Assembly: GCA_038322655.1 (NCBI GenBank) | Contig: JBBQGD010000002.1 | Location: 1-59,133 of the forward strand | Origin: Bacteroidales bacterium | GTDB taxonomy: Bacteria; Bacteroidota; Bacteroidia; Bacteroidales; UBA4417 | Reading direction: 5' to 3' | Length of the DNA: 59,133 nt | Shown: in pieces, positions 3,542 to 22,006 of the stretch | Numbering within the stretch: the stretch's first letter is position 1 | Layout of the letters: every line of letters begins with the position of its first letter | Notes under the pieces: model-generated | Databases searched by the model: none | What the model saw: the letters and a program-made list of their open reading frames with translations, nothing else | What the model was told of the DNA's origin: nothing | Translations under genes and position numbers: made by a program

Positions 3542-4273
3542 TTAACGTCCTAAATAAGCTTTGCGTAATTGTTCATTGTCCAAGAGATTCTTGGCATCGT
3601 CTGCGAGTACGATGCGTCCCGTTTGTACCACATATCCACGATCCGCAATCGAAAGTGCCATATTCGCGTTCTGCTCGACCATGAAAACAGTCGTTCCCTG
3701 CTCATTAACCTGCTTGATAATCTCGAAGTTGTTTTCCACCAAAATCGGCGCGAGTCCCATTGAAGGTTCGTCCATCAAGAGGAGTTTCGGGCGAGACATC
3801 AATGCCCGTCCCATCGCCAACATTTGCTGTTCACCGCCACTCAACGTACCGCCCAATTGATGTAGGCGTTCTTTAAGACGCGGAAACAACTTCAGCACCC
3901 GTTCCATATCCTCTTGAATCGCATGATGGTCACGACGTAAATACGCACCCATTTGCAAGTTTTCGAGTACGCTCATCGGCCCGAAGATACGCCGGTTTTC
4001 CGGCACGACTGCCATGCCCTTTTCCACACGGTAACCTGTTGGACGCATTTGTACCGCTTCACCCGCGAACTCAACAATACCACTGGTCGGCTTGACAATG
4101 CCGAGGATGGTTTTCAAGGTGGTCGATTTACCGGAAGCGTTGCCTCCCAACAAACAGATTAACTCACCGGAATAAACCTCTAAGTTCACTCCCTGTAAGA
4201 TATGAATTGGCCCATAATGGGTGTTGATGTCGCGCAGACTCAGAAGCGGTATGCCTTTTCCGTTGCTGCTCAT
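3542..4273 (-). CDS. livF: Branched-chain amino acid ABC transporter, ATP-binding protein LivF-type
   Basis: Walker A GGNASGKST, ABC signature LSGGEQQ, Walker B LLLMDEPS. 4-nt overlap with the upstream livG-type gene. Confidence 0.85.
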   Translation of the reverse strand: MSSNGKGIPLLSLRDINTHYGPIHILQGVNLEVYSGELICLLGGNASGKSTTLKTILGIVKPTSGIVEFAGEAVQMRPTGYRVEKGMAVVPENRRIFGPMSVLENLQMGAYLRRDHHAIQEDMERVLKLFPRLKERLHQLGGTLSGGEQQMLAMGRALMSRPKLLLMDEPSMGLAPILVENNFEIIKQVNEQGTTVFMVEQNANMALSIADRGYVVQTGRIVLADDAKNLLDNEQLRKAYLGR

Positions 4274-5058: not shown

Positions 5059-5061
5059 AGC

Positions 5062-6504
5062 TTAAGCAATCTCCACACGGCGCTGACCCAGCAGGCCATT
5101 GGGACGATAAATCATCAAGACAATCAACAGCACCCCTACGAAGAGCAAACGTGTGATGCTCGGTTCTGCAACCAGCCGCGTTTCCCATACAAACAGCAGC
5201 AGGTAAAGTGTCGGCACCAAAGCTACCAAACGCCATAATACAGGTTTGATACGGCTGACTGCCAGCACTGCAATAATCAAGATGGCGAAAGCATAGTTAC
5301 CCACTGTTGTCGCATCCTTTGGAATCGGCAGCCAACTTCGCACGGTATCACCAATAATGGCACCCGTTGGTTTAAGGGGCGCAAAAGCATCGGGAGTAGC
5401 ACCGACAAGAACTGTTCGTAGGATAAATCCGAATACCACGACCGCCAGAATCAGCGCGACCGCCTGCCAACGCGGTTTGATGACCGCAAATAAGGTCACT
5501 AGCACACCGAGATAAAATAAGGTTCCCGCTAAGGGTGCATTTCGCAATATATCTGGCACAGCGATCATAATCACCGCACCCAATACCACACCGGGCAAAC
5601 TGCCTAAACCACCTAGCACAATAATTGCATAGACCGTAATCAACAGAGTCGTATCAAAGTTTGATGGAAATACCGATCCTTGCCACGCCGCGAAAAGGCC
5701 ACCACTAAAACCCGCAAAAGCTGCACCAATGGCGAATGCTTGCAGTTTCAGCCGATGAGTCGGAATACCCATTGCTTGGGCAGCCAGCTCATCCTCGCGC
5801 AATGCTCGCCATGCCCGACCTACACGCGACTTATAAAGGTGATAAATCACCAAAATCGCGACTGCAAACACTACCAGCAAAATCAAGTAATAGTGAACAA
5901 CGGTCGTCGCTTTTAACCCCAAAATACTCAGTGGATCAAGGTTTACAATGCCATTTGGGCCACCTGTCAAATCAACTGGTTTATCCCGACCCGGTAAACT
6001 AACGCGCGTCAGGCTAGTAGTCAGCTGCACAAACATTTGCCCGAAGCCCAGCGTCACAATCGCCAAATAATCTCCTATCAACCGCAGCGATGGTGAACCG
6101 AGGAGCAGACCGAACAATGCCGAAACCACCACAATAATGATTAAAGTCGCCCACGTTGGGAAATGTACGCCTGTAAAATCCGATGATAAATAGGCATAAA
6201 CATATGCACCAATACCGTAAAAGGCGATGAAGCCGAGGTCAAGCAAACCAGCGTATCCTGCCACAACATTCAAACCTAAAGCCAGTATGCCCATTAAGGC
6301 GATGTTACCAGCAATGCGAATAGCAAAACTATTTGTGGTAGCAACGGGCAGTAGTACACCCAATACCACCAGACAAATCAACCATCCCCATACCGGCAAA
6401 CGGCGGCTGGTCTGCTCGATAAACCCTTGAATGCCTTTGGCACGACTCACACGCTGGTCGTACTGCTCTACCCACTGGTCAACACCAATTTTATCGTGTG
6501 ACAT
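5062..6504 (-). CDS. livM: Branched-chain amino acid ABC transporter permease LivM-type
   Basis: 480-aa polytopic membrane protein. Sits between the livH-type and livG-type genes with 3-nt gaps. Confidence 0.8.
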   Translation of the reverse strand: MSHDKIGVDQWVEQYDQRVSRAKGIQGFIEQTSRRLPVWGWLICLVVLGVLLPVATTNSFAIRIAGNIALMGILALGLNVVAGYAGLLDLGFIAFYGIGAYVYAYLSSDFTGVHFPTWATLIIIVVVSALFGLLLGSPSLRLIGDYLAIVTLGFGQMFVQLTTSLTRVSLPGRDKPVDLTGGPNGIVNLDPLSILGLKATTVVHYYLILLVVFAVAILVIYHLYKSRVGRAWRALREDELAAQAMGIPTHRLKLQAFAIGAAFAGFSGGLFAAWQGSVFPSNFDTTLLITVYAIIVLGGLGSLPGVVLGAVIMIAVPDILRNAPLAGTLFYLGVLVTLFAVIKPRWQAVALILAVVVFGFILRTVLVGATPDAFAPLKPTGAIIGDTVRSWLPIPKDATTVGNYAFAILIIAVLAVSRIKPVLWRLVALVPTLYLLLFVWETRLVAEPSITRLLFVGVLLIVLMIYRPNGLLGQRRVEIA

Positions 6505-6507
6505 GGG

Positions 6508-7437
6508 TTATACTTTCTGCGCGATTCGTGCGCCAAGCAAACCACGTGGGCGTAAGAGCAAAACAATAATCAGGACGACAAAGGCTACAATATCTTTGTA
6601 AGTTGATGAAATAAAAACAACTGCGAAGGTCTCTGTCAGACCAAGGATAAATCCACCTAACATCGCACCGGGGATATTACCAATACCACCCAGTACGGCT
6701 GCTGTGAAGCCTTTCAAACCAGCCGAAAAACCCATGAAGTGATAAATACGTGTGAACACAATACCAGTCAAAACACCGGCTGCACCAGCTAAAGCACTGC
6801 CGATGAAGAAGGTGAACACAATCACCTGATCCACGTTAACACCCATCATCGCTGCAGCCTCGCGGTCAATAGCAACTGCTCGCATGGCTTTACCCAGCTT
6901 GGTACGGCGAATGAGATATTGCAGGATAATCATCAAAACGATAGCCGTCACAATAACCAACGCGCGGGTCACCGATAATCGGGCGTTACCGAAATCAAAA
7001 GCCAAACCCGGCGCGATTAATTTCTCGGTTTCATAATTGCGAAATTTAGCGGTTAGAGTTAGTTGTACTGCGTTCTGAATAAAGAATGACACACCCAATG
7101 CGCTAATGAGAGGAGCAATACGCGGTGCGTTTCGTAGGGGGCGATAAGCAAATTGCTCGATAACTACACCTAAAATACCACAACCCAACATAGCTAATAA
7201 CATCATGAAAATAATGATCAGAACAGGGGCAATTATCGGGCCATCAGGAGGTAGAAAAGCCACCATCACGAAATAACCGATAAAAGCACCTATCATGTAA
7301 ACATCACCGTGCGCAAAATTCAACAATTGCAGCACGCCGTAAACCATTGAATAACCCAGTGCAATCAGGGCATAAACTGCACCAAGCGTCAGCCCATTGA
7401 TCAGCAGTTGAGGGAACTGTTGCAGAAAGAGATCCAT
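6508..7437 (-). CDS. livH: Branched-chain amino acid ABC transporter permease LivH-type
   Basis: 309-aa polytopic membrane protein with an N-terminus (LINGLTLGAVYALIALGYSMVYG) typical of LivH-family permeases. Confidence 0.85.
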   Translation of the reverse strand: MDLFLQQFPQLLINGLTLGAVYALIALGYSMVYGVLQLLNFAHGDVYMIGAFIGYFVMVAFLPPDGPIIAPVLIIIFMMLLAMLGCGILGVVIEQFAYRPLRNAPRIAPLISALGVSFFIQNAVQLTLTAKFRNYETEKLIAPGLAFDFGNARLSVTRALVIVTAIVLMIILQYLIRRTKLGKAMRAVAIDREAAAMMGVNVDQVIVFTFFIGSALAGAAGVLTGIVFTRIYHFMGFSAGLKGFTAAVLGGIGNIPGAMLGGFILGLTETFAVVFISSTYKDIVAFVVLIIVLLLRPRGLLGARIAQKV

Positions 7438-7466
7438 AAAATTTCAACTTCTTGAGTGCAATAAAT

Positions 7467-7491
7467 CAGGGTGACGCTGTGCATCACCCTG
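7467..7491 (-). terminator. Intercistronic hairpin between the binding-protein gene and livH (attenuator or mRNA stabiliser)
   Basis: Perfect 8-bp inverted repeat CAGGGTGA / TCACCCTG with a 9-nt loop, 33 nt downstream of the livK-type stop. The minus-strand RNA continues with AUUUAUU. Confidence 0.35.
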
Positions 7492-7524
7492 AATAAACTG
7501 TAATACTGAATTTAGCCTACGGAT

Positions 7525-8724
7525 TTAGCCAGCAGGCGTAGCTTCAGGTGTGGCTTCCATCATGTCTTCAGATGAAACAGTAGGAACCAATTCAAAATTA
7601 TCACCCTTAACTTGGAAGATGTAGAACGCTGCATTTTGAACATCGCCGTTCTCGTCAAAAGCGATTGGGTTACCCAAGACACTTGTTGCCTGATCAGTCT
7701 CGGTAACTTCGTCCAGAACACCTTCACGGGTCAGCTTGTCTGCCTCAAAAGCACGTTTAATGGCCTCCAATAGAACAGTAGTGGCGGCATAGGTGGGCGG
7801 GCCAAATGTACCAAATTCACCATATTTTTCGGTATAGCGCTTGACCACATCAGCCGAGGATTCCAGCTTGTGAATATCCGGAGCGAAGGCCGAAACATAA
7901 GCACCTTCGGATGCACCAGCCGCACCTTTAATAAAGTCATCAACCGATTGGAAGCCATCAGCACCAAACACGGTGATATCAGCACCTTGTTCAACGACTG
8001 CCTTAGCCAACAAAGCACCTTGAGACGCAATCTGACCGGGGAAGAAAATAACTTCTGCACCAACACCTACTGCCTTGGTCACAATGGTTGAGAAATCCTG
8101 ATCATCCTGCTTGACGGATTCGCGACCTACAATCGTACCACCTGCGGCTTCGAATGCGGCAGAAGCAGCATCAGCCAAGCCAGTGGCGTATGAGGTCTGA
8201 TCGTCAATAACAAACAACTTGGTAGCGCCTAGTTCGTCAGCAATAAAGTTGCCGTCTGTTGGGCCTTGTGCATCATCGGTCGGCACAACACGGAAAAAGG
8301 TATCATTACCACTGGTGGTCAATGAAGGACGGGTTGCAGAACCAGAAATCGTGACCAAACGAGCTTCTTTGAACTTAGGGCCAGTAGCTTCGACTTCTTG
8401 GCTTCCGGCAGGGCCAACAACACCATAAACATCAGCATCAGCAATCAAGGACTCGGCGGCAGTTACAGCTTTGGCTGCGTCTAATTCGGTATCACTTTCG
8501 ACCGCTTCAACAGCCCAACCATCATTAGCCGCATTAAAATCATCAACAGCCATCTTTGCCCAATTCAATTGTTCAGTACCAATCGAACCTGCTGGACCAG
8601 TGATGGGAGCCATGATGCCAATCTTTACCTTCACAGTTGGTGCTTGGGCAAAGACAACAGAGTTAAAAGCCATCGGTACGACAGCTAGAGCCAGTACCCC
8701 AATAAGCGACTTTCTAAACTTCAT
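7525..8724 (-). CDS. livK: Periplasmic branched-chain amino acid binding protein (type I PBP, LivJ/LivK-like)
   Basis: I prefer the internal ATG at 8724 (MKFRKSLIGVLALAVVPMAFNSVVFAQA, a clear Sec signal preceded by AAAGG) over the ORF-track start at 8778. The mature part resembles Peripla_BP_6-type leucine-binding proteins. Confidence 0.8.
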   Translation of the reverse strand: MKFRKSLIGVLALAVVPMAFNSVVFAQAPTVKVKIGIMAPITGPAGSIGTEQLNWAKMAVDDFNAANDGWAVEAVESDTELDAAKAVTAAESLIADADVYGVVGPAGSQEVEATGPKFKEARLVTISGSATRPSLTTSGNDTFFRVVPTDDAQGPTDGNFIADELGATKLFVIDDQTSYATGLADAASAAFEAAGGTIVGRESVKQDDQDFSTIVTKAVGVGAEVIFFPGQIASQGALLAKAVVEQGADITVFGADGFQSVDDFIKGAAGASEGAYVSAFAPDIHKLESSADVVKRYTEKYGEFGTFGPPTYAATTVLLEAIKRAFEADKLTREGVLDEVTETDQATSVLGNPIAFDENGDVQNAAFYIFQVKGDNFELVPTVSSEDMMEATPEATPAG

Positions 8725-8925
8725 GACAGCGTTTACCTTTCTAAAAAGAATGATTCTCTTGCCAACGATCAAACACAATTAACGTTAACCGTTGCGAGTA
8801 AAGTTATACCGTTACATCGATAAGGACGCAAATTCCGTTGTGGAAGGGGTATACAAATGGCTTTGGGGTTCAACCAACGACTGGCTATACTCTACCAACA
8901 ATTCCGAAAGTGAAGGGACGACAAG

Positions 8926-9909
8926 GTGCGTTATACCAATCTAGGACGAACAGGCCTACAAATATCGGTGATCGGTCTGGGCTGCGGCAATTTCGGCGGC
9001 ATTGGCAGTTCACCGGATTTTTTTGGTAAGGGTGATACTGAAGAAGAAGCCTTTGCCATTATGGACACCGCTTGGGAAATGGGCATCAACAACTTTGATA
9101 CAGCCGATGCTTACGGGGGTGGGCGCAGCGAAACGGCGATTGGTAAATGGCTCAAAACTAAAGATGTGACTGTCCGTGACAACCTGATCATAACGTCGAA
9201 AGTCTTCAACCGTGTGGCTGATGGGCCGAACAACATGGGGCTTTCAAGACGGCATATTCTGCGGCAGGTGGAACGCAGTTTGCAACGATTAGGCGTTGAC
9301 CACATCGACATGTATCTGATGCATGAACCTGATCCAACGACTCCAATTGAAGAGACCATTCAGGCGATGGATGATCTAGTGCGGCAGGGAAAAGTCCATT
9401 ACATCGGTGCGTCAAACATGCCGGGATGGTTGATGACCAAAGCATTATGGATCAGCGACAAATACAGTCTGCACCGTTTTGAGTGGGTGCAAAATTCCTA
9501 CAGCTTGCTAGAGCGAACCGATGACCGTGAAGTGCTGCCATTGGTAGCCGATCAAGGTTTGGGTTATACACCCTTTAGTCCGCTGGCGGGTGGTTGGCTA
9601 ACCGGTAAATATCAATCAGCAGCCGATTTTACCGCGAGTTCACGGATGGGAATGCGACCGGAACCGTATCAAAAATTGATCAACCAAAATGTTTTTGATG
9701 GTTTGGCAAAGTTCAAAGCCGAAGCGGACAAACGCGGCGTGAGCATGGGCGGGTTGGCGATTGCGTGGTTACTGAGCAATCCATTGATCACAGCACCGAT
9801 TATCGGGCCACGTAAACCAGCACATTTCCAACCTGTGAAGGAAGCCTTAGAACTAAACCTAACAGCCGAAGAACGTGACGAATTGACGGCCTTGTTTCCG
9901 GGGTTCTGA
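8926..9909 (+). CDS. Aldo/keto reductase family oxidoreductase
   Basis: GTG start after GAAGGGA. Motifs GLGCGNFGG, FDTADAYGGG, IDMYLMHEPD and HYIGASN are characteristic of the AKR family. Confidence 0.85.
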   Translation: MRYTNLGRTGLQISVIGLGCGNFGGIGSSPDFFGKGDTEEEAFAIMDTAWEMGINNFDTADAYGGGRSETAIGKWLKTKDVTVRDNLIITSKVFNRVADGPNNMGLSRRHILRQVERSLQRLGVDHIDMYLMHEPDPTTPIEETIQAMDDLVRQGKVHYIGASNMPGWLMTKALWISDKYSLHRFEWVQNSYSLLERTDDREVLPLVADQGLGYTPFSPLAGGWLTGKYQSAADFTASSRMGMRPEPYQKLINQNVFDGLAKFKAEADKRGVSMGGLAIAWLLSNPLITAPIIGPRKPAHFQPVKEALELNLTAEERDELTALFPGF

Positions 9910-9921
9910 AATCAAGTACCT

Positions 9922-9949
9922 GTAAGGAAAAGGCATGCCTTTTCCTTAC
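9922..9949 (+). terminator. Perfect 28-nt palindrome (terminator-like hairpin) after the AKR gene
   Basis: GTAAGGAAAAGGCA|TGCCTTTTCCTTAC starts 13 nt after the stop codon. No U-tract follows (GACAACAACAAAA), so intrinsic-terminator function is uncertain. Confidence 0.4.
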
Positions 9950-9986
9950 GACAACAACAAAATCGAATTATTGAAAGGCATTCTTG

Positions 9987-10991
9987 ATGAAAGTCTTGAT
10001 GATTAACCAGAGCGAAGTGAAACAGCTTTTGCCGATGGACGAGTGCATGGATGTGATGGCGGATACACTGAAAACACTGAGCGAAGGCAATGCAATTTTG
10101 CCTTTACGTCCGGTGATGTGGCTGCCGGAAAAGGTAGGGGCGTTGGGGATGATGCCCAGCTATTTGGGCAGCATCGGCATGATGGGCTTAAAAGTCGTGA
10201 GCGTTTTTCCGGGTAACCACGGCACAGAATATGATTCACATATCGGTGCGGTGATGCTGTACGAAACCAAACATGGTCAACTGTTGGCGATTGTGGATGC
10301 CAGCGAGATTACCGCTATTCGTACAGCAGCCGTGAGTGGTGTGGCAACACAGACTTTGGCACGGGAAGATGCCAGCGATTTAACCATTATGGGTGCGGGA
10401 ATACAAGGCAAATCACATTTAGCAGCGATGTTGGTTGCAAGGAATATCAAGCGGGTAAGGATTTGGAGTCGCAACCTTGAACATAGCAAAGCCTTTGCCG
10501 AACGTGAAGGCAAACGTTATGACATCAAAATCGAAGCGATTGCTGATGCACAGCGGGCGGTTGAGGGTGCGGATATTATTTGCACAACCACATCATCACC
10601 AGAACCGATTTTGAAGGGCGAATGGCTGCAAGCCGGTGTGCATGTGAATGCGGTGGGGTCGAGTGTAGCATTTACACGGGAATTGGATACAGCGGCAGTC
10701 GTCAAATCCAAGCTGTTTGTTGACCGAAAAGAATCGACGGTCAATGAGGCAGGTGACTTCTTGTTTCCAAAGAAGGAAGGTGCAATTGATGACAGCCATA
10801 TCAAAGGTGATTTGGGTGATGTACTGCTTGGCAAGTTAAAAGGCAGGGAATCAGCCGACGAGATTTCGCTGTTCAAGTCTTTGGGATTAGCGGTTGAAGA
10901 CGTGGCATCAGCACATCATATCTACACCAAAGCCTTAGAAAGAAACATGGGGATTGCTGTCGAGTTGGGAGGCAGCCGACATGACGACTAA
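9987..10991 (+). CDS. Ornithine cyclodeaminase / mu-crystallin family protein
   Basis: ATG at 9987 lies 8 nt after GAAAGG; the ORF track begins 3 nt earlier at TTG. Rossmann motif MGAGIQG and typical OCD_Mu_crystallin length and layout. Confidence 0.85.
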   Translation: MKVLMINQSEVKQLLPMDECMDVMADTLKTLSEGNAILPLRPVMWLPEKVGALGMMPSYLGSIGMMGLKVVSVFPGNHGTEYDSHIGAVMLYETKHGQLLAIVDASEITAIRTAAVSGVATQTLAREDASDLTIMGAGIQGKSHLAAMLVARNIKRVRIWSRNLEHSKAFAEREGKRYDIKIEAIADAQRAVEGADIICTTTSSPEPILKGEWLQAGVHVNAVGSSVAFTRELDTAAVVKSKLFVDRKESTVNEAGDFLFPKKEGAIDDSHIKGDLGDVLLGKLKGRESADEISLFKSLGLAVEDVASAHHIYTKALERNMGIAVELGGSRHDD

Positions 10992-11937
10992 TCCGATCAG
11001 TTTGGAAGATATTCAAGCGGCGAGAGAACGGATTGCGGGTTCGGTTATCAGAACACCGTTGATTAAACTCAACGTGGACAATACACCAGCCGAAATTTAC
11101 CTCAAGCTGGAGAATTTGCAGCCGATTGGATCATTTAAATTACGCGGTGCGAGTAATGCGATGGCTTTAGCAGCACCAGAACAATTGGCAAAAGGTGTGT
11201 ATACCTGTAGTGCTGGCAATATGGCTCAAGGGGTGGCATGGAATGCGAGACGTTTAGGGATTCCATCGACGGCAATTGTGCCTGACCATGCACCAGAAAC
11301 CAAGTTAGCGGCGATTAAACGGTTGGGCGGTGAGATCATCAAAGTGCCGTTTGACGAGTGGTGGAAGGTGATGGTGACTCATCAATATGCAGGGATGGAA
11401 GGGTTATTTATACATCCGGTGAGTGATCCAGCGGTAATGGCGGGTAACGGTACAATCGGGTTGGAGATTTTAGAAGATCTGCCAGATGTGGACACGATTG
11501 TGATTCCGTATGGCGGTGGTGGATTAAGCTGCGGCGTGGCAACAGCGGTACGAGCATTAAAAACAAAGATTCTCATTTATGCGGGCGAAGTGGAAACTTC
11601 AGCAGCATTTGCAGGAGCGTTAGAAGCAGGCGAAAAAGTTGCCATCAACTATCAGGCGAGTTTTGTGGATGGCATCGGCAGTGGCAGCGTTTTGGATGAT
11701 ATGTGGCCTTTGGCGAAAATGCTGTTGGATGGGTCTTTGGTAATGTCCTTGGCGGAAGTAGCAGATGCGATTCGGCTGCTGGCAGAACGTAACCGTGTGA
11801 TTGCCGAGGGTGCAGGTGCAACACCAGTGGCAGCAGCATTATCTGGCAAAGCGGGTGGCGGCAAAGTGGTGTGTATTGTGTCGGGTGGCAACATCGACTT
11901 TGAAAAGCTGACTAAGATTTTTAAGCGAGAAATCTGA
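10981..11937 (+). CDS. Threonine ammonia-lyase / serine-threonine dehydratase family PLP enzyme
   Basis: I prefer the ATG at 10981 (MTTNPISLEDIQAARERI). It overlaps the upstream stop by 11 nt. Contains the PLP-lysine motif SFKLRGA and a glycine loop GGGGL. The stop codon TGA is part of the first unit of the downstream repeat. Confidence 0.8.
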   Translation: MTTNPISLEDIQAARERIAGSVIRTPLIKLNVDNTPAEIYLKLENLQPIGSFKLRGASNAMALAAPEQLAKGVYTCSAGNMAQGVAWNARRLGIPSTAIVPDHAPETKLAAIKRLGGEIIKVPFDEWWKVMVTHQYAGMEGLFIHPVSDPAVMAGNGTIGLEILEDLPDVDTIVIPYGGGGLSCGVATAVRALKTKILIYAGEVETSAAFAGALEAGEKVAINYQASFVDGIGSGSVLDDMWPLAKMLLDGSLVMSLAEVADAIRLLAERNRVIAEGAGATPVAAALSGKAGGGKVVCIVSGGNIDFEKLTKIFKREI

Positions 11938-12169
11938 GTGCTGAGTGCTGAGTGCTGAGTGCTGAGTGCTGAGTGCTGAGTGCTGAGTGCTGAGTGCTGA
12001 GTGCTGAGTGCTGAGTGCTGTGTGCTGAGTGCTGAGTGCTGAGTGCTGAGTGCTGAGTGCTGAGTGTTGAGTGCTGAGTGCTGAGTGCTGAGTGCTGAGT
12101 GTTGAGTGTTGAGTGCTGAGTGCTGAGTGTTGAGTGTTGAGTGCTGAGTGTTGAGTGCTGAGTGCTGAG
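11934..12169. repeat. Heptanucleotide tandem repeat (CTGAGTG)n, 33 units plus a 5-nt partial unit
   Basis: Counted by hand: 26 consensus units, six TTGAGTG variants (units 20, 25, 26, 29, 30, 32) and one CTGTGTG (unit 13). Confidence 0.97.
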
Positions 12170-12289
12170 ACAGGGTATCAAAAACATTTGAATGCTCTAA
12201 TCTGACAATTGATGAATCAAAGTACAATGCACCGGATATTTTTATTTAGTAATCGAGGTCTGGATTTTTCTAAAACCATGCCAAATGAT

Positions 12290-13366
12290 TTATACAAAAA
12301 AATCTATTTCAAGGTTCATATAAAAATGGAGGCTTTCGCGTATTAGTTTTTCACCGGGATATTGATCATAAACAGGCTCTCCTATTTTGCGGATAAGCGA
12401 AAAATTTAATTTCGAAACTTCGGAATTCTTTTTATCGTGACTCATTAATACCAGAATTTCATCAGCCGAGCCGGGCTTAAACCGGTAATGCGGAAATTGC
12501 CAGCTTACCAGGTTGGAAATTTTCCTCAAATCATTTACATCCAAACCAAACATCCGCATCGAGATAAAACTTTCGCAAATCAATCCTATAGCTACGGCTT
12601 CGCCGTGCAATAGCGGGTCCGGATCATTTTTCTGAGAATAGGATTCAATGGCATGCCCGATGGTATGTCCAAAATTGAGAACCTTTCGTAAACCACTTTC
12701 CACAAGGTCTTTACTGACAACTTCAGTTTTAACCAAGGCTGAGGCAAGAATACTATTTTCATTACAAACCTTTTCGGGCGAGTTAAGCAGGATTAGTTTC
12801 TCAAAATGTTCCTCGCTGTCGATCATTGAGTGTTTAATCAATTCAGCAAATCCCGAAAGTTTTTGCCTGGCCGGCAGTGTTTGCAGAAACTCAGTAAATA
12901 TAAATACTGCCTTAGGGAGCGAAATTACGCCTATCTGATTTTTAACTGAATTAAAGTTTATACCATTTTTGCCACCTAATGCAGCATCTACCATGGCAAG
13001 TAATGTGGTCGGGATATGAATAAAATTCATTCCCCGCTTAAAAGTAGCTGCAGCAAATCCTCCAATATCCGTAATTACTCCTCCTCCCAGGCAAATCATC
13101 AATGAATTCCGAACGGCACCGCCCTCAACCAGGCTGGTCCACACTTTTTCGGCGACGGCAATGGTTTTATTCGATTCGTTTACTGGAATTTCTATAACCC
13201 TGGCGTCGTCGAGCCCTGAACATTTTTCTTTCAGGAGCGGCAAACAAAATTTATGGGTATTTTCATCAACCAGTATAAAAATACCGGCCTGACTGTAATC
13301 CGGAATCATTTCCTGCAAACGGGTCCAACCTTTGAAACCGGAATATATTGAGTCAGCTTTGTTCAT
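12290..13366 (-). CDS. aroB: 3-dehydroquinate synthase
   Basis: 358 aa. Motifs GGGVITDIGGFAAATFKRG, LAMVDAALGGKNGIN and GHTIGHAIE are typical of AroB. Confidence 0.85.
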   Translation of the reverse strand: MNKADSIYSGFKGWTRLQEMIPDYSQAGIFILVDENTHKFCLPLLKEKCSGLDDARVIEIPVNESNKTIAVAEKVWTSLVEGGAVRNSLMICLGGGVITDIGGFAAATFKRGMNFIHIPTTLLAMVDAALGGKNGINFNSVKNQIGVISLPKAVFIFTEFLQTLPARQKLSGFAELIKHSMIDSEEHFEKLILLNSPEKVCNENSILASALVKTEVVSKDLVESGLRKVLNFGHTIGHAIESYSQKNDPDPLLHGEAVAIGLICESFISMRMFGLDVNDLRKISNLVSWQFPHYRFKPGSADEILVLMSHDKKNSEVSKLNFSLIRKIGEPVYDQYPGEKLIRESLHFYMNLEIDFFV

Positions 13367-13613: not shown

Positions 13614-15725
13614 TCACTTTTCTATCTGGCTTAGCGCGGTTTTTACCTCTTTTGAAGGGAGTTTACACAGTTTATTACGGCAAACGTAAATCGTAGTCTG
13701 CCCTTTAACCATTCGGTTTTTGAGTAATTCTAAATTCCCTTCGTTGATGCCGCCCGATAAAAACACGTTAGGTAAATAATGTGTATCAAATTCCTTGCGC
13801 CTGGCTTCGAAGTTATTACCTACAATCGCTATTTCGTATGGTTCGCTGGCAAACCAGGCCATTAAAATATCCCAGTTTGCATAATACGTGCCACCTTTCA
13901 GTGCATTTTGCTTCACATTGTTGAGCATTTTTTTCGACATGCCGATATATTCCTCATTGTAAAAATACTGTCCCAGCACAAAAAGATTTTTTGCCATTTC
14001 AGAATTGGACGAAGGGATCACATTATCTGTTACTTCCATCTTACGGGCTATCAGGGCAGGATCCAGATCAGAGGTATAATAAAACATTCCGCTGTTTTTA
14101 TCGTAAAAATGGGCCAGAGAATAATCAGTCAATTGCCGTGCTTCCTGCAACCACTTTTCGTCGAAAGTGGCCTGGTACAGCGAAATGAAAGCACTGATCG
14201 TAAAGGCATAATCATCTGAAAACGCGTTGATCGAAGCTTTCCCGTTTTTAAAGTTCCGGTACAAGCGGTTGTCGGCCGTTTTGATTCTGGTATTGATAAA
14301 GAGGGCATTTTTCAAGGCAATATCCAGATATTTCTTGTCATTAAAAACCCGGTAGGCATCGACATAAGCCTTCAGCATAAGTGCATTCCACGATGTAAGG
14401 ATTTTATCGTCCAGCCTGGGCCGCACACGCTTTTCTCTTTCCTGGTATAAGCGTTTCTTCGCTGCCGAAACCCTTTTTATTAATTCGTTTTCAGAGATTT
14501 TGTATTTTTCCGCAACTTTTTTATCTGATCCCGATTTGAACAATATATTTACGTTTTGTTCCCAATTTCCGTTTTCAGTAACATTGTAATAATCCATTAT
14601 TAATCCGGCATCATCTCCCAATACTTCCTGTAGTTCGCCTTCGGTCCACACGTAGAATTTGCCTTCCTCTCCTTCACTGTCAGCATCCAGCGAGGAATAA
14701 AATCCGCCCTCTTCCGAGCTGAGTTCGCGTTGAATAAAATTGAGGGTTTCATTCACAATAACTTTGTATAAGGGATCTTTGGTTTGCTGATATGCTGCTG
14801 AATACAGGCTTACAAGCTGGGCATTATCATAGAGCATCTTTTCGAAATGTGGCACCTTCCAATACGCATCAGTCGAATATCGGGAGAAGCCTCCGCCCAC
14901 CTGGTCGTATATTCCGCCATCAGACATCTTACCTAATGTTATGGAAACAGCCTGAAATGCATCCGGATTATGAGTAAGATAATTATAATGAAGCAAAAAC
15001 TGGTAGCCTATTGGCAACGGGAACTTAAGGGCCCTTTTATGGCCTCCATCGATGTAATCAACATCACTTTTCCACGATGAGAAAATACGGTTTAAGTCGT
15101 CTAAACTAAATTCTGAATTTGCTTCATTCTCATAAAATATTTCACCCGAATTCACGCCTTCGGTAAGTGATTTTGCCTGATCTTCTGCCTTTTCGGGATT
15201 TTTATTGATAAAATCTGAAACCTGTTTCAACATATCCAGCCACTGAGCTTTAGGAAAATAGGTTCCGCCATATACAGGCCTTCCATCCGGCAAGGCAATG
15301 CAATTCAGCGGCCAGCCTCCGCTACCGGTGAGTAATTGAACGGCATTCATATATATTTGATCAATGTCCGGTCTTTCTTCCCTATCTACTTTGACAGACA
15401 CAAAATGTTTGTTCATAAAATCGGCGACCTCCTCGTTTTCGAAACTTTCGTGCTCCATTACATGGCACCAGTGGCAGGCAGCATACCCAATACTGATGAT
15501 GATCAGTTTATTTTCTTTCCTTGCTTTATCCAGAGCTTCTTTGCCCCATGGATACCAGTTTACAGGGTTGTGGGCGTGCTGCAATAAATAAGGACTGCTT
15601 TCGTGAATAAGCTGGTTGGTAAATTTAAATCCGGTTGATTTCATGGTGTCATTTTTTTCCCGCGATTGCCCGCAGGAGGTTAAAACAAGGATGTAAAACA
15701 GTAAAACAGAAGTTAATTGTTTCAT
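13614..15725 (-). CDS. Thioredoxin-domain protein of the DUF255 / YyaL family, with a six-hairpin C-terminal domain
   Basis: 703 aa. Lipoprotein-type signal (LVLTSCGQS), then [10 protein letters not shown]...[16 protein letters not shown], the hallmark N-terminus of this family. Confidence 0.85.
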
Positions 15726-16403
15726 TAATATTTTTTTCAGTCAGTTTGTTCGCCTATAGAATGAAGCATACTTAAAACCCGGGAACTGTAAGTTGGCTGT
15801 ATGCCGTATCAACATCACTTTTTGAATACGTGGTAGTATAATGAATGAAACACGCTACAGGAATATATGTTTAACGCGTGCGGGTGGGAAGATATCCTTT
15901 GCCAGGCTTTAAAAAATAAAAAATGGATTTAGTTTTTTTATTCTGCACCATTCATGCTTAGTATTAAGACAAAAGTAAAACGCTAAAAAAGGCAGTTGAA
16001 AACCTTTTTCATAGTACTCTTTGAAGATTTTTTTTTACAAATAAAACAATGCTCAAGGTACCTATAAATGTAAATATGGGGCCAACAGGTATTCAATTTT
16101 TTATTTTACAACTAATTTGCATAGCGATTAAAGTGGCTTTTTAATCTTTTAATTAATATCTTTGTTGATGCCCTATTTTAGCTATCGGGTTATACCGTCT
16201 GATTAGGTAGAATACTAATTAAAATCCAAACAAAAAAAAGTTCAGTACATTTTGACCTTTTCTGAAATATATCGGTACCAAAGTCACAACTGTGAATAAA
16301 AAATAAAAGGCGTTATTCGGAAAAACTTGATTCAGATTTCGTCAAAGGAAACCAAACTCTATAAAATTCAGAGCCCGATAAACCCAAAAATTAAAATTAT
16401 CCA

Positions 16404-16919
16404 ATGAAAATAAAATGGTTTATTCTCATGCTAACGGCATCCTTATTTATTAGTTGTCAAAAAGATGAAAAACCTGAAATCAAAAATGAAAAACAAGATT
16501 TAAACGAAAGCAACTTAGCTTTCTTAAATTCCGACTGGACTTTCGCATCAACAGGAGATTCATTGAATAACCAGGTTATCGGATTATGGTTATCGGACGA
16601 AATAAGTTATAATTCGATCGATTGCACTGATTGTGACAGCTTATTTACGTGGGTTATTGAATCGACAGGACAAATGGTGAAAAGAAATAATAATTGGGGC
16701 GATCATGAAACCCAATACGGAATTTGGGCGGTTGACGAAACCAAAAAAAATATTTTATTCAGCTATAAACAATACTTCGTCGCGGGCTTACGTGATGATT
16801 ATGTGATAATTACGGATACGATCAGTATTGAACAATTAGAATTGCCCTATTTATGGACACGCCAGATTATTGCTGAAAACACAACGCTTGATGTAAAATT
16901 CAGCAAACTGAATAAATAA
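16404..16919 (+). CDS. Hypothetical lipoprotein
   Basis: 171 aa with signal plus lipobox (LFISCQKDE). I recognise no family. Coding status rests on ORF length and the signal peptide only. Confidence 0.5.
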   Translation: MKIKWFILMLTASLFISCQKDEKPEIKNEKQDLNESNLAFLNSDWTFASTGDSLNNQVIGLWLSDEISYNSIDCTDCDSLFTWVIESTGQMVKRNNNWGDHETQYGIWAVDETKKNILFSYKQYFVAGLRDDYVIITDTISIEQLELPYLWTRQIIAENTTLDVKFSKLNK

Positions 16920-17277
16920 AAACGAATTATTGCAAAGTCCTATAAAACAGGCGGTTTTTGGTTAAAATTAAGTTTCGTTACCGTGCTGCCATCCGAAATA
17001 ACAGGCACTTTAGCACTACACTTCTAGGTGCAGCCTTGCCTTTAGTCTACCCACTCTAATCAGGCCGGGATATTGTTAGCGAAGCTCATAGTTTAAAGCA
17101 GTCCGTTAATCCCTTCAATTTTCAACTGCCTCCCGAATAATTTTTCCATAACTGCGATAAATGTGAACGGTATGTTTTCTTTTCAATCAACCGTAAAGCG
17201 AAGCCGATATAATTATACCAATAGAAAATAATTTTCATACAAAGCAGCCTCTTCGCTCAATCGTCTGAAAAGCTTTA

Positions 17278-17285
17278 TACATTTG
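17278..17285 (+). promoter_or_regulatory. Candidate Bacteroidota -7 promoter element (TAnnTTTG)
   Basis: TACATTTG ends 20 nt before the proline dehydrogenase ATG. No clear -33 TTTG partner was seen. Confidence 0.3.
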
Positions 17286-17305
17286 CACCCTTAAAGATAT
17301 TCTAT

Positions 17306-18472
17306 ATGATTTCATTCGAAAACACCGAAATAGCATTTCGTTATAAGACTGACAATGATTTAAAGCGGGCACGTCTGCTTTTCGGTACCATTGCTAACCC
17401 GGGACTTGTAAAAATAGGAAAATCACTTACTTACCTTGCTCTGAATTTACATTTACCTATCGCCTGGGCCATCAAACCAACCTTATACAAACATTTTGTA
17501 GGAGGCGAAACCCTAGATGAATGCGAAAAAACCGTTAAACTGTTAAGCAAGTACCAGGTGAAATCCATTCTCGATTATTCGGTCGAAGGTGGAAAAGACC
17601 AGGAAACCATGCAACGCACACTCGACGAAACCCTACGTTCAGTGGTTCACGCAGGCAAACATCCCGATATTCCCTTTTCGGTTTTTAAACCTACTGCATT
17701 TGCATCCCAACAGGTGCTTACAAGTGCTTCGGAGAATACAGATATCGGCAGTAGCACTAACAAAGCCATTCAATTTTTCATTCAAAGTGTTGAACAGCTG
17801 TGTAAAACAGCTTTTGAAAATGATATCCCCATCATGATCGATGCCGAAGATTCGTGGTACCAGCCCTTTGTCGACCAGGTTGTTACCGGAATGATGGAAA
17901 AGTACAACAAGCAGAAAGCTATAGTTTACAACACATTACAAATGTACAGGACCGACAGGCTTGAATTTCTGAAAGAATCGTTACGGAAAGCTGAAAAAGG
18001 CAATTATTTCCTGGGAATAAAATTTGTTCGGGGCGCATATATGGAGAAGGAACGATTACGTGCAAGTGAAAAAGGGTACTCCTCACCTATTCAGCCCGAT
18101 AAAGCAGCTACAGACCGTAATTACGATGAAGGCATAGCATTTTCGGTCGCCCACCTCGACCGGATTTCAGTTTTTAACGGTTCGCACAACGAAAACAGCA
18201 ACCGATTGCTGACTGAACTTATGGAAAAACACGGACTTGCCCGGAATGATAACAGGATATGGTTCTCGCAACTTTATGGAATGAGCGATCATATAAGCTT
18301 TAACCTGGCAAGTGAGGGCTATAATGTCACAAAATATATACCTTACGGACCGGTACGCAACATATTACCTTATTTGCTCAGGCGCGCCGAAGAGAACACG
18401 TCTATTGCCGGTCAGACAGGTCGCGAACTGATTTTGCTAAAGCAAGAACAGAAGCGTAGACAGAAAGTGTGA
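17306..18472 (+). CDS. Proline dehydrogenase (monofunctional, PutA-N-like)
   Basis: 388 aa. The length and C-terminal motifs (YGMSDHISF, YIPYGP...LPYLLRRAEENTS) fit the stand-alone proline dehydrogenases of Bacteroidota. Confidence 0.8.
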   Translation: MISFENTEIAFRYKTDNDLKRARLLFGTIANPGLVKIGKSLTYLALNLHLPIAWAIKPTLYKHFVGGETLDECEKTVKLLSKYQVKSILDYSVEGGKDQETMQRTLDETLRSVVHAGKHPDIPFSVFKPTAFASQQVLTSASENTDIGSSTNKAIQFFIQSVEQLCKTAFENDIPIMIDAEDSWYQPFVDQVVTGMMEKYNKQKAIVYNTLQMYRTDRLEFLKESLRKAEKGNYFLGIKFVRGAYMEKERLRASEKGYSSPIQPDKAATDRNYDEGIAFSVAHLDRISVFNGSHNENSNRLLTELMEKHGLARNDNRIWFSQLYGMSDHISFNLASEGYNVTKYIPYGPVRNILPYLLRRAEENTSIAGQTGRELILLKQEQKRRQKV

Positions 18473-19039
18473 GATATCTAAAACATAGCATTCTAAATAA
18501 AACTAAGGCATTATATGATTTGTATTCTGATTAGTAAATGATGGAATATAATACAAATCAAGGATTAAATTCAACTATTGTGATTGAGGCAGGTAGGTGT
18601 AAAACCTTTGAAGGGTTCGCCTGGCGACTAACATATTACAATTTCAACTCTTGATTCGCAAGTAAGATTATCACATTATTAAAAGGAAGCCAAAAGATAT
18701 TAAGCTATCTACGTTAAATTATTTTCTGTTGTTAAAAATCCTTAACGGGATACTTTGTCAGGCATATTGTCGTTTTAAATAGCAATATACTATCTTTGCC
18801 ACCCAAAATTTATCTCCATGACGAAATAGCCATGATTCTGCAATCACTCCAAAAAGGTGGTTTTAATAACCCTATTATTCCTAAAAACTTTCAGGACGAA
18901 ATGTCCGGTTTAAAAACAAATGGTAACCAGATGAAATAGCCATGATAGAATTTTCTCTTTAACCGGAAATGATCTAATGGCTTATTCTATCCCGATAAAT
19001 CGGGACAAGTAATGACCTTTAAAAAAAAATAAATTACAC

Positions 19040-22006
19040 ATGAAAACGTATTTACTGTTAATCACTTTATTAGTTGCTCTTCCATTTATAACTCTTGCAC
19101 AGAAACAGGTAAAGGATCCCTCCGAAAAAGAGATCATGGCTGCCAAACAAGTTCTTATGCGCACCGTAGGCATGAAGTCTTCCTCATTCGAGTTTGAAAA
19201 AATTCCGACTGAAAACGGACTTGACGTTTACGAGGTTATTGCTCTCGGGGGCAAAGTGCTGGTTAAAGGTTCGGGTACCATAGCCATGACCCGCGGCGCT
19301 TACGAATACATGATGAAAGCCTGCAATGTGCAGTATACATGGAGTAGTCAGCAGGTAACTTTGCCAAAGGTTCTGCCTGATTATTCCATTGCGCGTACAG
19401 TTTCACCTTATAAATTCAGACAATATTATAATGTATGTACTGCCGGGTACAGCACTGCTTTCTGGCATTTTGCCGACTGGGAGAAAGAACTTGACTGGAT
19501 GGCCTTACATGGTATCAATATGCCTTTGGCAATGGGCGGTCAGGAAGCCATATGGCAAAAAGTTTATAAAGATATGGGGTTGACCAATGATGAGATGTCA
19601 GCCTTTTTCACAGGCCCGGCATTTCTTCCCTGGCAGCGCATGGGTAATTTATACAAGTTTGGCGGACCGCTGCCTCAATCCTACATCGATCAATCGATGG
19701 AATTGCAGAAGCAAATCCTGATACGTATGAAACAACTTGGCATGCAACCCATTGTTCCCGGTTTCTCAGGCATAGTTCCCGCTGCATATTCCCGCCTCAA
19801 TCCTGATGCCAAACTTCGTGAAATGAAAGGATGGTGCAATTTCCCTGACGAATACAAATCATATATACTTGCTCCGGGATCTTCCGATTTTACTACTATC
19901 GGTAAAAACTTTATCAACGAATACCATCGTACATATGGTGAAGTGGACTATTACCTGGCAGACCTGTTTAACGAGAATGAAGTTCCTGTTTCGGCCTCGA
20001 ACCGCAACGAGGAATTAGCGTCGTATGGAAAATCTGTGTCGGATGCCATTACCGCCGCTGATCCTAAAGGGGTGTGGGTAATGCAGGACTGGATGTTTTA
20101 TAACAATGAGAGCTTCTGGGACAAAAGTGCTGTTAAAGCTTTCCTGAGCGAGGTTCCAGATGATAAAATGCTCATAATTGATCTGGCTAATGAGAGTTTT
20201 TCCGGTTGGGAAAAATTCGATGGGTTTTATGGGAAACCTTGGATTTACAGTACAATTAATAATTATGGAGGCAACTCACAACTAGGTGGTAACCTGCCTT
20301 TCCTTTCATGCGACGCCACTTCCATGCTTGCCAGCCCGAAAAGAGAAAAAATTGCCGGATTCGGAATTTCACCCGAAGGGATCGAAAACAACGAAGTGGT
20401 TTACGAACTACTCACGCAAATGGCATGGACTTCGGCAGATTTCAATATAAAGTCCTATATCCCGGAATTCGCAAAACAAAGGTACGGCCAGACAGATGAA
20501 TATATCACCGAAGCATGGCTGGAGTTGCTTGGTTCCGTATATGCTAAAAACAACTTTCATCCGCTTAATCTTTACCAGGCCAGACCGCCATACGCTTCTA
20601 ATGTAAATATGAAAGATGATCCTGGCTTGAACCATGCGACTGCCTTGTTTATAAGATCAATAAAAAAATACAGCGCCAGTCCTTTGTTTAAAACTGACCT
20701 GGCTCTTTTAGTAACGCAATATGCCGGAAACAAAGTCGATATTCTGTTGCAGAGAGCGCTTGATTTAAATAATCTTGGAAACATCTCCGAAAGTAAGCGT
20801 GCATTCGACAGAGCATTTGAACTTATGCTTATGATGGATGGACTCACATCAAGCATGCCTGACCAACGGCTTGAAAGGTTAATTGACAATGCCCGGAAGT
20901 ATGGCTATACCAAAGAAGAATCGGATTACTATGAGACCAATGCAAAACGACAGCTTACCCAATGGGGTAATAATGCAACGCCTGTACTTAATGAATATGC
21001 ATCGAGAGTCTGGAGTGGCCTCATCAGGGGTTATTATCTCGGCCGGTGGAGCGCATATGCCAGATCACTTCAAACGGGCGAAGCGCTAGATCTCAATGAA
21101 TGGGAGACCAACTGGATAAATAAATCAGGATCTCTCACCAAATCACCTACTACCGGAGATGTAAATGTATATGCCGTAACCTTGTACAACGCAGCAAGGG
21201 AATATATTAATGAGAATATTCCTCTGGTTAAAATTACAGCCTCATATATCGGGAACAATAAAGCATTGGTAACCCTTGTTCCGCTTCAGTCCGACACCGA
21301 AATGAGCTTTAACGGCGAGGAACCGGCTACAAAAGGTAACAGCAAAACTATAGTGCCGCTAACACCCGTTCAGTCAGGTAATAGTATCAACTATACTACC
21401 GACGGCTCCTCACCTGCATCAGTTACCGTAAAATATGAAATACCTTTTGAAGTGAATTTGCCGGCAACAATCAAAGCTGTTGCATACCTCAACAATGCGC
21501 TGGCCGGTGACGCAGCTACACTAAAAATTCCGGTTTCATTCGGTAAACCGGTATCCATATTCCCTCAACCTGCTGAGAAATACAAAGCTCATTTGGGAGC
21601 AACCCTAACGGATGGAATTAAAACAGGTGAAAATTACCAGGACGGAACCTGGCTTGGTTATGAAGGGGATAACCTGAGTGCAATGATCTCGCTTGAAGGC
21701 AAATATAAAGTCTCGAAAGTTACATTGAGCTATCTCCAAAACTCCGATGCATGGATTTTTGCACCTCATTCGGTTATTTTCGAAACATCTGCCGATGGAG
21801 TTAATTACAAATCAGCCGGCGTTCATGATTTTGACGATAGCAGGTGGAACATTTCAGGTAGGAGAAGTGAAATTACCGTCAGTTTCCCTGAAACCGAGGC
21901 TGCGTATATCCGCATGCTCATTTTCAACAGGGGAATATGCCCGGCAAACCATCCGGGAGCAGGCAAAAAAGCATTTATGTTTATTGATGAGATCACTGTT
22001 GAATAA
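19040..22006 (+). CDS. Alpha-N-acetylglucosaminidase (GH89, NAGLU-like) with C-terminal accessory beta-sandwich domains
   Basis: 988 aa with a Sec signal (PFITLAQ). NAGLU-like N-terminal, TIM-barrel and C-terminal regions (e.g. WMALHGINMPLA, FTGPAFLPWQRMGN). The last ~250 aa look like a chitobiase-C-type domain plus a discoidin-type domain. Confidence 0.85.
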   Translation: MKTYLLLITLLVALPFITLAQKQVKDPSEKEIMAAKQVLMRTVGMKSSSFEFEKIPTENGLDVYEVIALGGKVLVKGSGTIAMTRGAYEYMMKACNVQYTWSSQQVTLPKVLPDYSIARTVSPYKFRQYYNVCTAGYSTAFWHFADWEKELDWMALHGINMPLAMGGQEAIWQKVYKDMGLTNDEMSAFFTGPAFLPWQRMGNLYKFGGPLPQSYIDQSMELQKQILIRMKQLGMQPIVPGFSGIVPAAYSRLNPDAKLREMKGWCNFPDEYKSYILAPGSSDFTTIGKNFINEYHRTYGEVDYYLADLFNENEVPVSASNRNEELASYGKSVSDAITAADPKGVWVMQDWMFYNNESFWDKSAVKAFLSEVPDDKMLIIDLANESFSGWEKFDGFYGKPWIYSTINNYGGNSQLGGNLPFLSCDATSMLASPKREKIAGFGISPEGIENNEVVYELLTQMAWTSADFNIKSYIPEFAKQRYGQTDEYITEAWLELLGSVYAKNNFHPLNLYQARPPYASNVNMKDDPGLNHATALFIRSIKKYSASPLFKTDLALLVTQYAGNKVDILLQRALDLNNLGNISESKRAFDRAFELMLMMDGLTSSMPDQRLERLIDNARKYGYTKEESDYYETNAKRQLTQWGNNATPVLNEYASRVWSGLIRGYYLGRWSAYARSLQTGEALDLNEWETNWINKSGSLTKSPTTGDVNVYAVTLYNAAREYINENIPLVKITASYIGNNKALVTLVPLQSDTEMSFNGEEPATKGNSKTIVPLTPVQSGNSINYTTDGSSPASVTVKYEIPFEVNLPATIKAVAYLNNALAGDAATLKIPVSFGKPVSIFPQPAEKYKAHLGATLTDGIKTGENYQDGTWLGYEGDNLSAMISLEGKYKVSKVTLSYLQNSDAWIFAPHSVIFETSADGVNYKSAGVHDFDDSRWNISGRRSEITVSFPETEAAYIRMLIFNRGICPANHPGAGKKAFMFIDEITVE

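Follow-up and report, generated by a model that had tools for sequence, protein, structure and literature searches.

The window, by which we mean the whole 59,133-nt stretch of DNA analysed here, is a complete public contig derived from a metagenome, in which two blocks of genes meet at a heptanucleotide tandem array. Its main features are given below, with the evidence for each in brackets.

1 to 11937, no strand assigned: left block, a Chloroflexota (Anaerolineae, Aggregatilineales-like) fragment (Pfam, blastn and protein matches)
10981 to 11937, plus strand: PALP (threonine/serine dehydratase-like), the last gene of the left block (Pfam PF00291)
11934 to 12169, no strand assigned: heptanucleotide tandem array, (CTGAGTG)x33.7 (TRF, unit list and orthologous arrays in relatives)
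12169 to 12171, no strand assigned: most likely breakpoint (change-point at 12170 and the array end compared with relatives)
12170 to 59133, no strand assigned: right block, a Bacteroidota (Bacteroidales-like) fragment (Pfam, blastn and named matches of SusC)
12170 to 12289, minus strand: AT-rich 3' flank of aroB, 33% GC (GC and the aroB-aroA spacing of relatives)
12290 to 13366, minus strand: 3-dehydroquinate synthase (aroB, DHQS), the first gene of the right block (Pfam PF01761/PF24621)

The left block carries a PALP fragment, a WD40 protein, a class-V aminotransferase, an aldo/keto reductase, an ornithine cyclodeaminase-like protein, the PALP dehydratase and a LIV-type ABC transporter made up of two ATPases, two permeases and a binding protein. 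The Pfam search bears out an earlier note on this DNA, which had placed a LIV-type ABC operon left of the repeat. In blastn searches the block is collinear with contigs of an Aggregatilineales MAG (L002, 84-89%) and an Anaerolineaceae MAG (L003, 77-83%) as well as with a third contig (L005, 68-80%), and the homology to all three ends at 11933-11937, at the PALP stop, with nothing rightward matching. The named protein matches of PALP are Anaerolineae or Chloroflexota, at 91-97% amino-acid identity. The PALP fragment at 11-382 was also considered as a duplicate of the gene at 10981-11937, which could have signalled a circular or repeated left block, but the similarity between the two is only weak and at family level, and the fragment is not a duplicate. 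Additionally, a Logan contig from run SRR19962010 (L216) is 100% identical to positions 1-6751 and extends 129 nt beyond window position 1.

The right block features aroB, a DUF255 protein, proline dehydrogenase, NAGLU, a Y_Y_Y regulator, SusC/SusD, six PF10091 glucanase-like genes, a GH94-type phosphorylase, GH3, GH35, GH43, an MFS transporter and LytTR/His_kinase; the SusC/SusD genes and glycosidases previously read on this side were confirmed by Pfam. It is collinear in blastn with uncultured Bacteroidota contigs (L082/L086) at 74-79%. Named matches of SusC are to Bacteroidales, Lentimicrobium and Prolixibacteraceae at 67-69%, and the best non-self match of DHQS reaches 78%, its named matches being Bacteroidota/Bacteroidales MAGs. 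A check of best matches on the two sides, Aggregatilineales/Anaerolineaceae on the left versus Bacteroidota on the right, agrees with the taxonomic discontinuity that had been claimed.

An abrupt switch in composition at the repeat had likewise been described, and unsupervised trinucleotide Jensen-Shannon segmentation places the change-point at 12170, directly after the array; when the array is deleted, the change-point falls at 11900, with the junction then expected at 11933. The value of JS*n at 12170 is 741, and no split placed inside the right block exceeds 94 (about eightfold less). GC ranges from 0.44 to 0.51 per kb on the left versus 0.32 to 0.46 on the right, and the means of 500-nt windows (0.479 versus 0.409, Mann-Whitney p=3e-10) and of GC3 per gene (0.48 versus 0.40, p=0.002) confirm the higher GC and GC3 reported for the left side. 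The tetranucleotide signatures of the two sides also differ and switch at the junction: 4-kb windows from the left correlate at 0.88-0.93 with the left block and at 0.44-0.56 with the right block, and 4-kb windows from the right at 0.84-0.93 with the right block and at 0.41-0.61 with the left. Of the marks around gene starts that the earlier note had used to tell the sides apart, the Shine-Dalgarno contrast holds, with a GGAG/GAGG core upstream of 4/9 left genes and 2/24 right genes, as do the A-rich contexts on the right (upstream A+T of 0.74 versus 0.55 on the left). TAnnTTTG elements do not distinguish the right side, their density being equal at 0.84 (left) and 0.83 (right) per kb, and the GTG and TTG starts on the left stand only in part, as some of the TTG starts are artefacts of taking the longest ORF. 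The gene lengths of relatives (318 and 334 aa) put the start of PALP at 10981 (ATG) and that of OCD at 9987, and for PALP the 318-aa start agrees with the gene calls in relatives.

Unameliorated composition is also what a very recent inter-phylum transfer would give, in which at least 12 kb of Aggregatilineales DNA entered a Bacteroidota genome, or the reverse, by microsatellite recombination. Such a real junction would further suit a sequence that is continuous without Ns and in which the genes on both sides are intact. Counting against it, SusC/SusD outer-membrane systems and Bacteroidota starts lacking Shine-Dalgarno motifs would fail in an Anaerolineae host.

The array spans 236 nt and is the sole tandem array that TRF reports in the whole window, with a period of 7, 33.7 copies, 95% matches and 0% indels. 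Its earlier description as a perfect-period repeat is right for the period but not for the sequence, as 8 of the 34 units deviate, namely one CTGTGTG and seven TTGAGTG, and all seven of the latter are confined to the right-hand half. The array begins at the PALP stop codon, with the TGA (11935-11937) lying within unit 1, and the register at this point, GAAATCTGAGTGCTGAGTG, is the same in the window and in contigs L091-L095, where the PALP stop likewise lies inside the first CTGAGTG unit. Orthologous CTGAGTG arrays at the same locus hold 2.7 copies in L091-L095 and 5 in L087/L088; other units are found in L002 (AGTACCA x6) and L003 (AGTACCG x6), the array of L089 at the PALP locus has 2 copies, and L005 has no array. 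At the orthologous locus, copy number is thus 0, 2, 2.7, 5 or 6 in relatives versus 33.7 in the window, and the unit itself varies between CTGAGTG, AGTACCG and AGTACCA. Because L091-L095 and L087/L088 have CTGAGTG at the orthologous locus, the array is a native feature of the Aggregatilineales lineage, in which it is hypervariable. In the close relatives there is a single array per fetched locus of 12-21 kb.

That two unrelated genomes meet at a low-complexity spacer could point to deliberate or post-assembly concatenation or scaffolding, as in a synthetic test sequence, and the earlier note had named a deliberately concatenated sequence among its alternatives. The spacer is, however, the array of the left lineage in its native register, there are no Ns, and the left PALP (P0002) is recorded together with the right DHQS, SusC and other right-block proteins on one public NCBI contig of 59,133 nt. 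We therefore consider concatenation unsupported and its probability practically negligible.

In metagenome contigs, (CTGAGTG)n arrays with n of at least 5 are common, and in 30 of 87 cases the array is no more than 150 nt away from the end of a locus, which suggests that such arrays often break assemblies. Low-GC contigs bearing such arrays (L130, L158 and similar) were considered as Bacteroidota carriers and rejected; they encode sucrose synthase, GH65 and NACHT proteins, look cyanobacterial and have nothing in common with the window.

Gene order in relatives was compared on both sides of the array. In six relatives of the left block, PALP is followed by a heptamer array of 0-6 units and then by a conserved element with two hairpins, about 130 nt long and with the pattern AAAAGGCTA...AATTCTAAC...GAAGGTTTGT, an element that the window lacks. 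Beyond the array, the left-hand relatives also carry Chloroflexota genes. At the array end the relatives read CTGAG followed by AAAAGGCTA..., versus CTGAG followed by ACAGGGTATC... in the window, where the sequence is not alignable to the conserved element. In five Bacteroidota relatives, the order is aroB, aroA, a CCG-domain gene and Tex, and aroA (EPSP synthase) begins about 200 nt past the DHQS stop; in the window, the array is reached 120 nt after aroB and aroA is absent. The flank at 12170..12289 is truncated ahead of the expected aroA promoter and gene, and conserved synteny, judged by these neighbourhoods, is interrupted at the array on both sides. The most likely, and also the latest possible, position of the break is 12169..12171; should the right-hand genome have an array of its own, any position within 11938-12171 would be possible. 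A (CTGAGTG)n array was looked for in the aroB-aroA spacer of the Bacteroidota relatives, and none was found there.

The window array ends in the phase of the relatives (CTGAG, then A), which fits a complete native array abutting foreign DNA, and a pure k-mer-overlap mechanism alone does not account for this abutment. An array in native phase that directly abuts unrelated sequence speaks for a chimera made in vitro, that is, a chimeric molecule or read arising from amplification template switching at the repeat or as a chimeric long read, which the assembler then reproduced faithfully; the array-free spacer of the Bacteroidota relatives speaks for it as well, since a join by k-mers only needs a shared array. 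Set against this, though only indirectly, are the halves of the array, whose difference in variant content fits two arrays merged in a graph, and the literature, in which the cause commonly documented is a graph misjoin at a repeat (PMC9661791). On balance, we regard an in vitro origin as unlikely.

The structure of the locus also bears on transfer. The window scan gave no tRNAs and no Rfam matches, no integrase or transposase domains were found by Pfam in the window genes, and the long-range repeat scan detected no flanking direct repeats around either block. Host sequence is not seen on both sides of a foreign segment; there is a single boundary, both blocks reach the contig ends, and the left block, instead of returning to host DNA, continues identically for 129 nt past the contig end in L216. 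The recently acquired island proposed as an alternative in the earlier note finds no support in these features. Moreover, the boundary is the native end of a native array, and both the post-array element and aroA are lost.

The two blocks also occur independently of each other. All five left proteins searched in the protein collection were found on two contigs and all 13 right-block proteins found there on one, contig counts that are imprecise in that they apparently omit Logan contigs and differ by one from another lookup. A further NCBI contig, 15,967 nt long, also carries PALP, and by the protein-collection counts this second contig with left genes lacks right-block proteins. Among the Logan contigs, 100% matches to the left block came from SRR19962010 only, and those for two separate right-block loci only from SRR19962012 (L217 and L218, matching 13852-22290 at 100% identity and the gene at 56935-57684). 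None of the independently assembled contigs retrieved reaches the junction from either side, and lookups of the exact PALP and DHQS proteins gave no entry. For a scan of the flanks, 44 nt on the left and 44 nt on the right were merged into one IUPAC pattern, which matches both window sites; it had no match in genome_contigs or metagenome_contigs, and no independent copy of either flank was found there.

Against a transfer, the contig that matches 6.75 kb of the left block at 100.000% identity comes from a run that returned no right-block gene, and the second NCBI contig with left genes has no right-block proteins. Bacteroidetes and other phyla alike have known heptamer arrays, for which horizontal spread has been proposed (PMC4679880); this would favour a transfer, and we nevertheless consider a real inter-phylum junction quite improbable. 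The specific biological version is very improbable: an Aggregatilineales and a Bacteroidales organism of the same community would have recombined very recently at a heptanucleotide microsatellite present in both phyla, with at least 12 kb passing from one to the other.

In our assessment, the window is very probably an inter-genome misassembly, in which about 12 kb from a Chloroflexota genome and about 47 kb from a Bacteroidota genome have been joined. The switch of phylum, the synteny broken on both sides and the occurrence of the blocks apart in other contigs and runs bear out the chimeric join at the repeat that had been suspected. The data directly support two origins, the position of the break, an array native to the left lineage and the separate occurrence of the blocks. 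Because the contig would be an assembly artefact, genes of the two sides should not be linked, and the caution given earlier against connecting them functionally was correct.

As to how an inter-genome misassembly would have formed, positions 1 to about 12169 would come from an Aggregatilineales-like genome and end in its own intergenic heptanucleotide microsatellite directly after PALP, and positions from about 12170 to 59133 would come from a Bacteroidales-like genome entered 120 nt downstream of aroB. We infer that the array, because its 236 nt exceed the usual assembly k-mers and short reads, would collapse to a cycle of seven nodes in the graph. Other (CTGAGTG)n DNA in the sample or co-assembly, or any chimeric read, would enter the same node, and the assembler would have left this repeat node along an incorrect path. 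The right half of the array, rich in TTGAGTG variants, may stem from an array of the Bacteroidota genome itself. In CAMI benchmarks, inter-genome translocations are the most prevalent type of misassembly, and misassembly breakpoints are enriched in tandem repeats (PMC9661791).

The biological interest of the junction is low, and its use is as a contamination flag. As the contig is public, any bin that includes it is contaminated, either with the Chloroflexota DNA (about 12 kb) or with the Bacteroidota DNA (about 47 kb), and we recommend splitting the contig at about 12170. Wrong inferences that could be drawn from it are a tie between the LIV transporter and amino-acid genes and a beta-glucan polysaccharide-utilisation locus, gene transfer across phyla, and the assignment of SusC/SusD to Chloroflexota. 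Further, heptamer microsatellites recur at sites of assembly breaks and misjoins, with one third of the sampled (CTGAGTG)n arrays at locus ends.

Compared with known systems, the window is like the inter-genome translocation misassembly addressed by metaMIC and DeepMAsED (PMC9661791) in that two unrelated genomes are joined, the break lies within a short tandem repeat and coincides with a change of composition and taxonomy, and the synteny of each side is conserved elsewhere. That class is defined by a coverage step, discordant pairs and clipped reads, whereas the window is known from assembled sequence alone, and a shared repeat in the second genome is what we infer for it. The array itself resembles the heptanucleotide LSSRs of bacteria, which include the cyanobacterial STRR and the TAACTGA repeats of Beggiatoaceae, Cyanobacteria and Bacteroidetes (PMC4679880, citing Mrazek 2007). 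Shared features are head-to-tail 7-nt units without indels in an intergenic position adjoining a gene end, and a copy number and unit sequence that vary among close relatives, with tens of copies occurring. The window differs in its unit, CTGAGTG (AGTACCA/AGTACCG in relatives), and in its Chloroflexota/Aggregatilineales host. STRR are defined by many dispersed arrays per genome; the loci of 12-21 kb fetched here show one array each. With a genomic island the window has in common an abrupt shift in GC and k-mers and foreign best matches on one side; it differs in lacking an integrase, a tRNA target, flanking direct repeats and a second boundary, and in that each side is an ordinary chromosomal neighbourhood of its lineage, truncated at the junction.

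The discontinuity at the CTGAGTG array is genuine in the sequence, but in all probability it marks an artefactual fusion of two genomes rather than a biological feature. The elements that frame it are as follows.

1-382: PALP-family gene, cut by the left end of the contig
10981-11937, plus strand: PALP dehydratase, last gene of the left block (1-11937)
11934-12169: (CTGAGTG)x33.7 array, between the blocks
12290-13366, minus strand: DHQS (aroB), first gene of the right block (12170-59133)

Counted per kb, GC ranges from 0.44 to 0.51 left of the array and from 0.32 to 0.46 right of it, genes average a GC3 of 0.48 versus 0.40, and 4-kb tetranucleotide signatures correlate at 0.88-0.93 with their own side but only at 0.41-0.61 with the other. 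Unsupervised change-point detection by trinucleotide Jensen-Shannon divergence places the switch at 12170, or at 11900 once the array is deleted and the junction expected at 11933, with a signal about 8x stronger than that of the best split within the right block. All these measures agree with the compositional switch that the earlier note had placed at the repeat. Its contrast in translation signals holds for Shine-Dalgarno cores, present upstream of 4/9 left genes versus 2/24 right genes, but not for TAnnTTTG elements, which are equally dense left and right. The array, the sole tandem repeat in the window, indeed has a period of 7 with no indels (95% matches). Its units are not all identical: 8 of 34 are variant, namely one CTGTGTG and seven TTGAGTG, the latter all in the right half. 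The description from sequence was therefore correct save for small details. The first unit contains the TGA stop of PALP (11935-11937). A 191-aa ORF spanning the array antisense to the PALP 3' end (11652-12227, minus strand) is spurious, passing through the array only because CACTCAG repeats lack a stop codon in that frame.

Best-hit taxonomy, which the earlier note proposed as a check, gives Chloroflexota/Anaerolineae on the left and Bacteroidota on the right. Besides the LIV-type ABC transporter already recognised, the left block encodes a WD40 protein, a class-V aminotransferase, an aldo/keto reductase, an ornithine cyclodeaminase-like protein and the PALP dehydratase, whose homologues in Anaerolineae/Chloroflexota MAGs share 91-97% identity. 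The best PALP loci in the GTDB genome set belong to an Aggregatilineales MAG (97%), an Anaerolineaceae MAG (94%) and a second Aggregatilineales MAG (91%); DNA collinearity with these three covers window 2028-11933 at 77-89% identity, the alignments end at 11933-11937, and no DNA-level match to these loci was found right of the array. The right block carries aroB, a DUF255 protein, proline dehydrogenase, NAGLU, a Y_Y_Y regulator and, as the earlier note had said, a SusC/SusD pair with glycosidases, here a large glycoside-hydrolase cluster. All DHQS and SusC matches whose source name gives an organism are Bacteroidota (Bacteroidales, Lentimicrobium or Prolixibacteraceae), and uncultured contigs are collinear with this block at 74-79% nucleotide identity in the common order SusC, regulator, proline dehydrogenase, aroB.

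On each side, the native gene neighbourhood breaks off at the array. Six Aggregatilineales-type relatives have, right after the PALP stop, a short heptamer array (none in L005), a conserved element of ~130 nt and then Chloroflexota-type genes.

L002: array 10961-11004, AGTACCA x6; element present
L003: array 10994-11035, AGTACCG x6; element 11073-11203
L087: array about 7005-7040, CTGAGTG x5 (L088 likewise x5); element 7066-7195
L089: array x2; element 7044-7173
L091: array about 6953-6975, CTGAGTG x2.7 (in L091-95), in the register of the window; element 7008-7138
L005: no array; element present

The element, kept in 6/6 relatives and bracketed by AAT(T/C)C(T/C)AAC motifs, has two hairpins with compensatory changes in 4/37 predicted pairs and no Rfam match; it could act as a small RNA, a terminator or a regulatory element. 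It is absent from the window, where the sequence 3' of the array does not align with it. The array itself ends, as in these relatives, in the phase CTGAG followed by A. It is therefore native to the left lineage, and the break lies within it or where it ends on the right. Five Bacteroidota relatives have aroA (EPSP synthase) ~200 nt after aroB, and then a CCG-domain gene and Tex; in the window, only a 120-nt spacer of 33% GC separates aroB from the array.

The two blocks also occur separately. The 318-aa call of the identical PALP lies on a second NCBI contig of 15,967 nt; the public protein collection places 5/5 of the tested left-block proteins on two contigs and 13/13 right-block proteins found there on one. 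Among Logan assemblies, which are made from single sequencing runs, a 6,880-nt contig from SRR19962010 matches window 1-6751 at 100.000% identity, one of 8,439 nt from SRR19962012 matches 13852-22290, also at 100.000%, and a second SRR19962012 contig has the 56935-57684 gene, so each block is returned from a different run. Such a split would be the pattern of two organisms with different abundance profiles, and would not be expected of a physically linked segment. The SRR19962010 contig continues the left-block sequence 129 nt beyond window position 1 (its positions 6752-6880), which marks the left end of the window as a limit of the assembly, not a natural boundary.

A deliberate concatenation, also considered by the earlier note, is ruled out as a step after deposit, as the public record carries the 327-aa PALP call and DHQS on one NCBI contig of 59,133 nt, of which the window is the whole. 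The idea of an acquired island finds no support: the window contains no tRNA, Rfam family, integrase or transposase, and no direct repeats flanking either block. A genuine, very recent inter-phylum transfer at the junction is highly improbable, and the taxonomy switch, the two truncated neighbourhoods and the separate occurrence of the blocks favour a chimeric join at the repeat.

We infer that the join arose in the assembly graph: an array of 236 nt with a 7-nt unit exceeds usual k-mers and short reads and would collapse to a short cycle in a de Bruijn graph, which other (CTGAGTG)n DNA in the data could enter. Stretches of (CTGAGTG)n>=5 occur at least 120 times in JGI metagenome contigs, in carriers of 37-75% GC, and 30/87 arrays in the 80 loci examined lie <=150 nt from the locus end, which suggests that such arrays often break assemblies. 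One contig (L132) terminates in a 425-nt array. In CAMI benchmarks, inter-genome translocation is the commonest misassembly type, short tandem repeats are enriched in misassembled contigs and >10% of breakpoints fall within repeats (PMC9661791). The aroB-aroA spacer of the Bacteroidota relatives holds no (CTGAGTG)n array, and the low-GC carriers checked look cyanobacterial; a chimeric DNA molecule or read is therefore still in play as a form of the artefact.

As the join of the two genomes is very probably artefactual, the caution against linking left and right genes functionally is upheld: a split of the contig at about 12170 is advised, and the genes of the two sides must not be read together. 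Biological interest is low, and the practical use is a contamination flag on the public record.

Within the right block, 31396-34866, 43693-52065 and 54563-56848 look like a beta-1,2-glucan-type utilisation locus.

Six paralogues: PF10091 ('Glycoamylase', GH144-like) genes
43693-47034: GH94/SOGP-type glycoside phosphorylase
Also in the locus: GH3 beta-glucosidase, MFS_2 transporter, GH35 and GH43
25402-30087: one SusC/SusD pair, adjoining the locus

Compared with the closest Bacteroidota relatives (L082-L086), window 13614-16919 and 19040-22006 hold extra genes: a DUF255/thioredoxin-GH-like protein and a 171-aa ORF between aroB and proline dehydrogenase, and NAGLU between proline dehydrogenase and the Y_Y_Y regulator. 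A KilA-N domain protein (42837-43661) within the glycoside-hydrolase cluster, far from the junction, is the only mobile-element-like gene of the window; several JGI and Logan contigs carry members of its 90% cluster.

The intergenic spot after the PALP stop in Aggregatilineales-like genomes is a hypervariable heptamer microsatellite with 0 to 34 copies, whose units CTGAGTG, AGTACCG and AGTACCA, set in register as AGTGCTG, AGTACCG and AGTACCA, differ by transitions only. In Bacteroidetes and Cyanobacteria, heptamer arrays with as many as 43 copies are known (PMC4679880), and the post-PALP microsatellite is an STRR-like feature in Chloroflexota.
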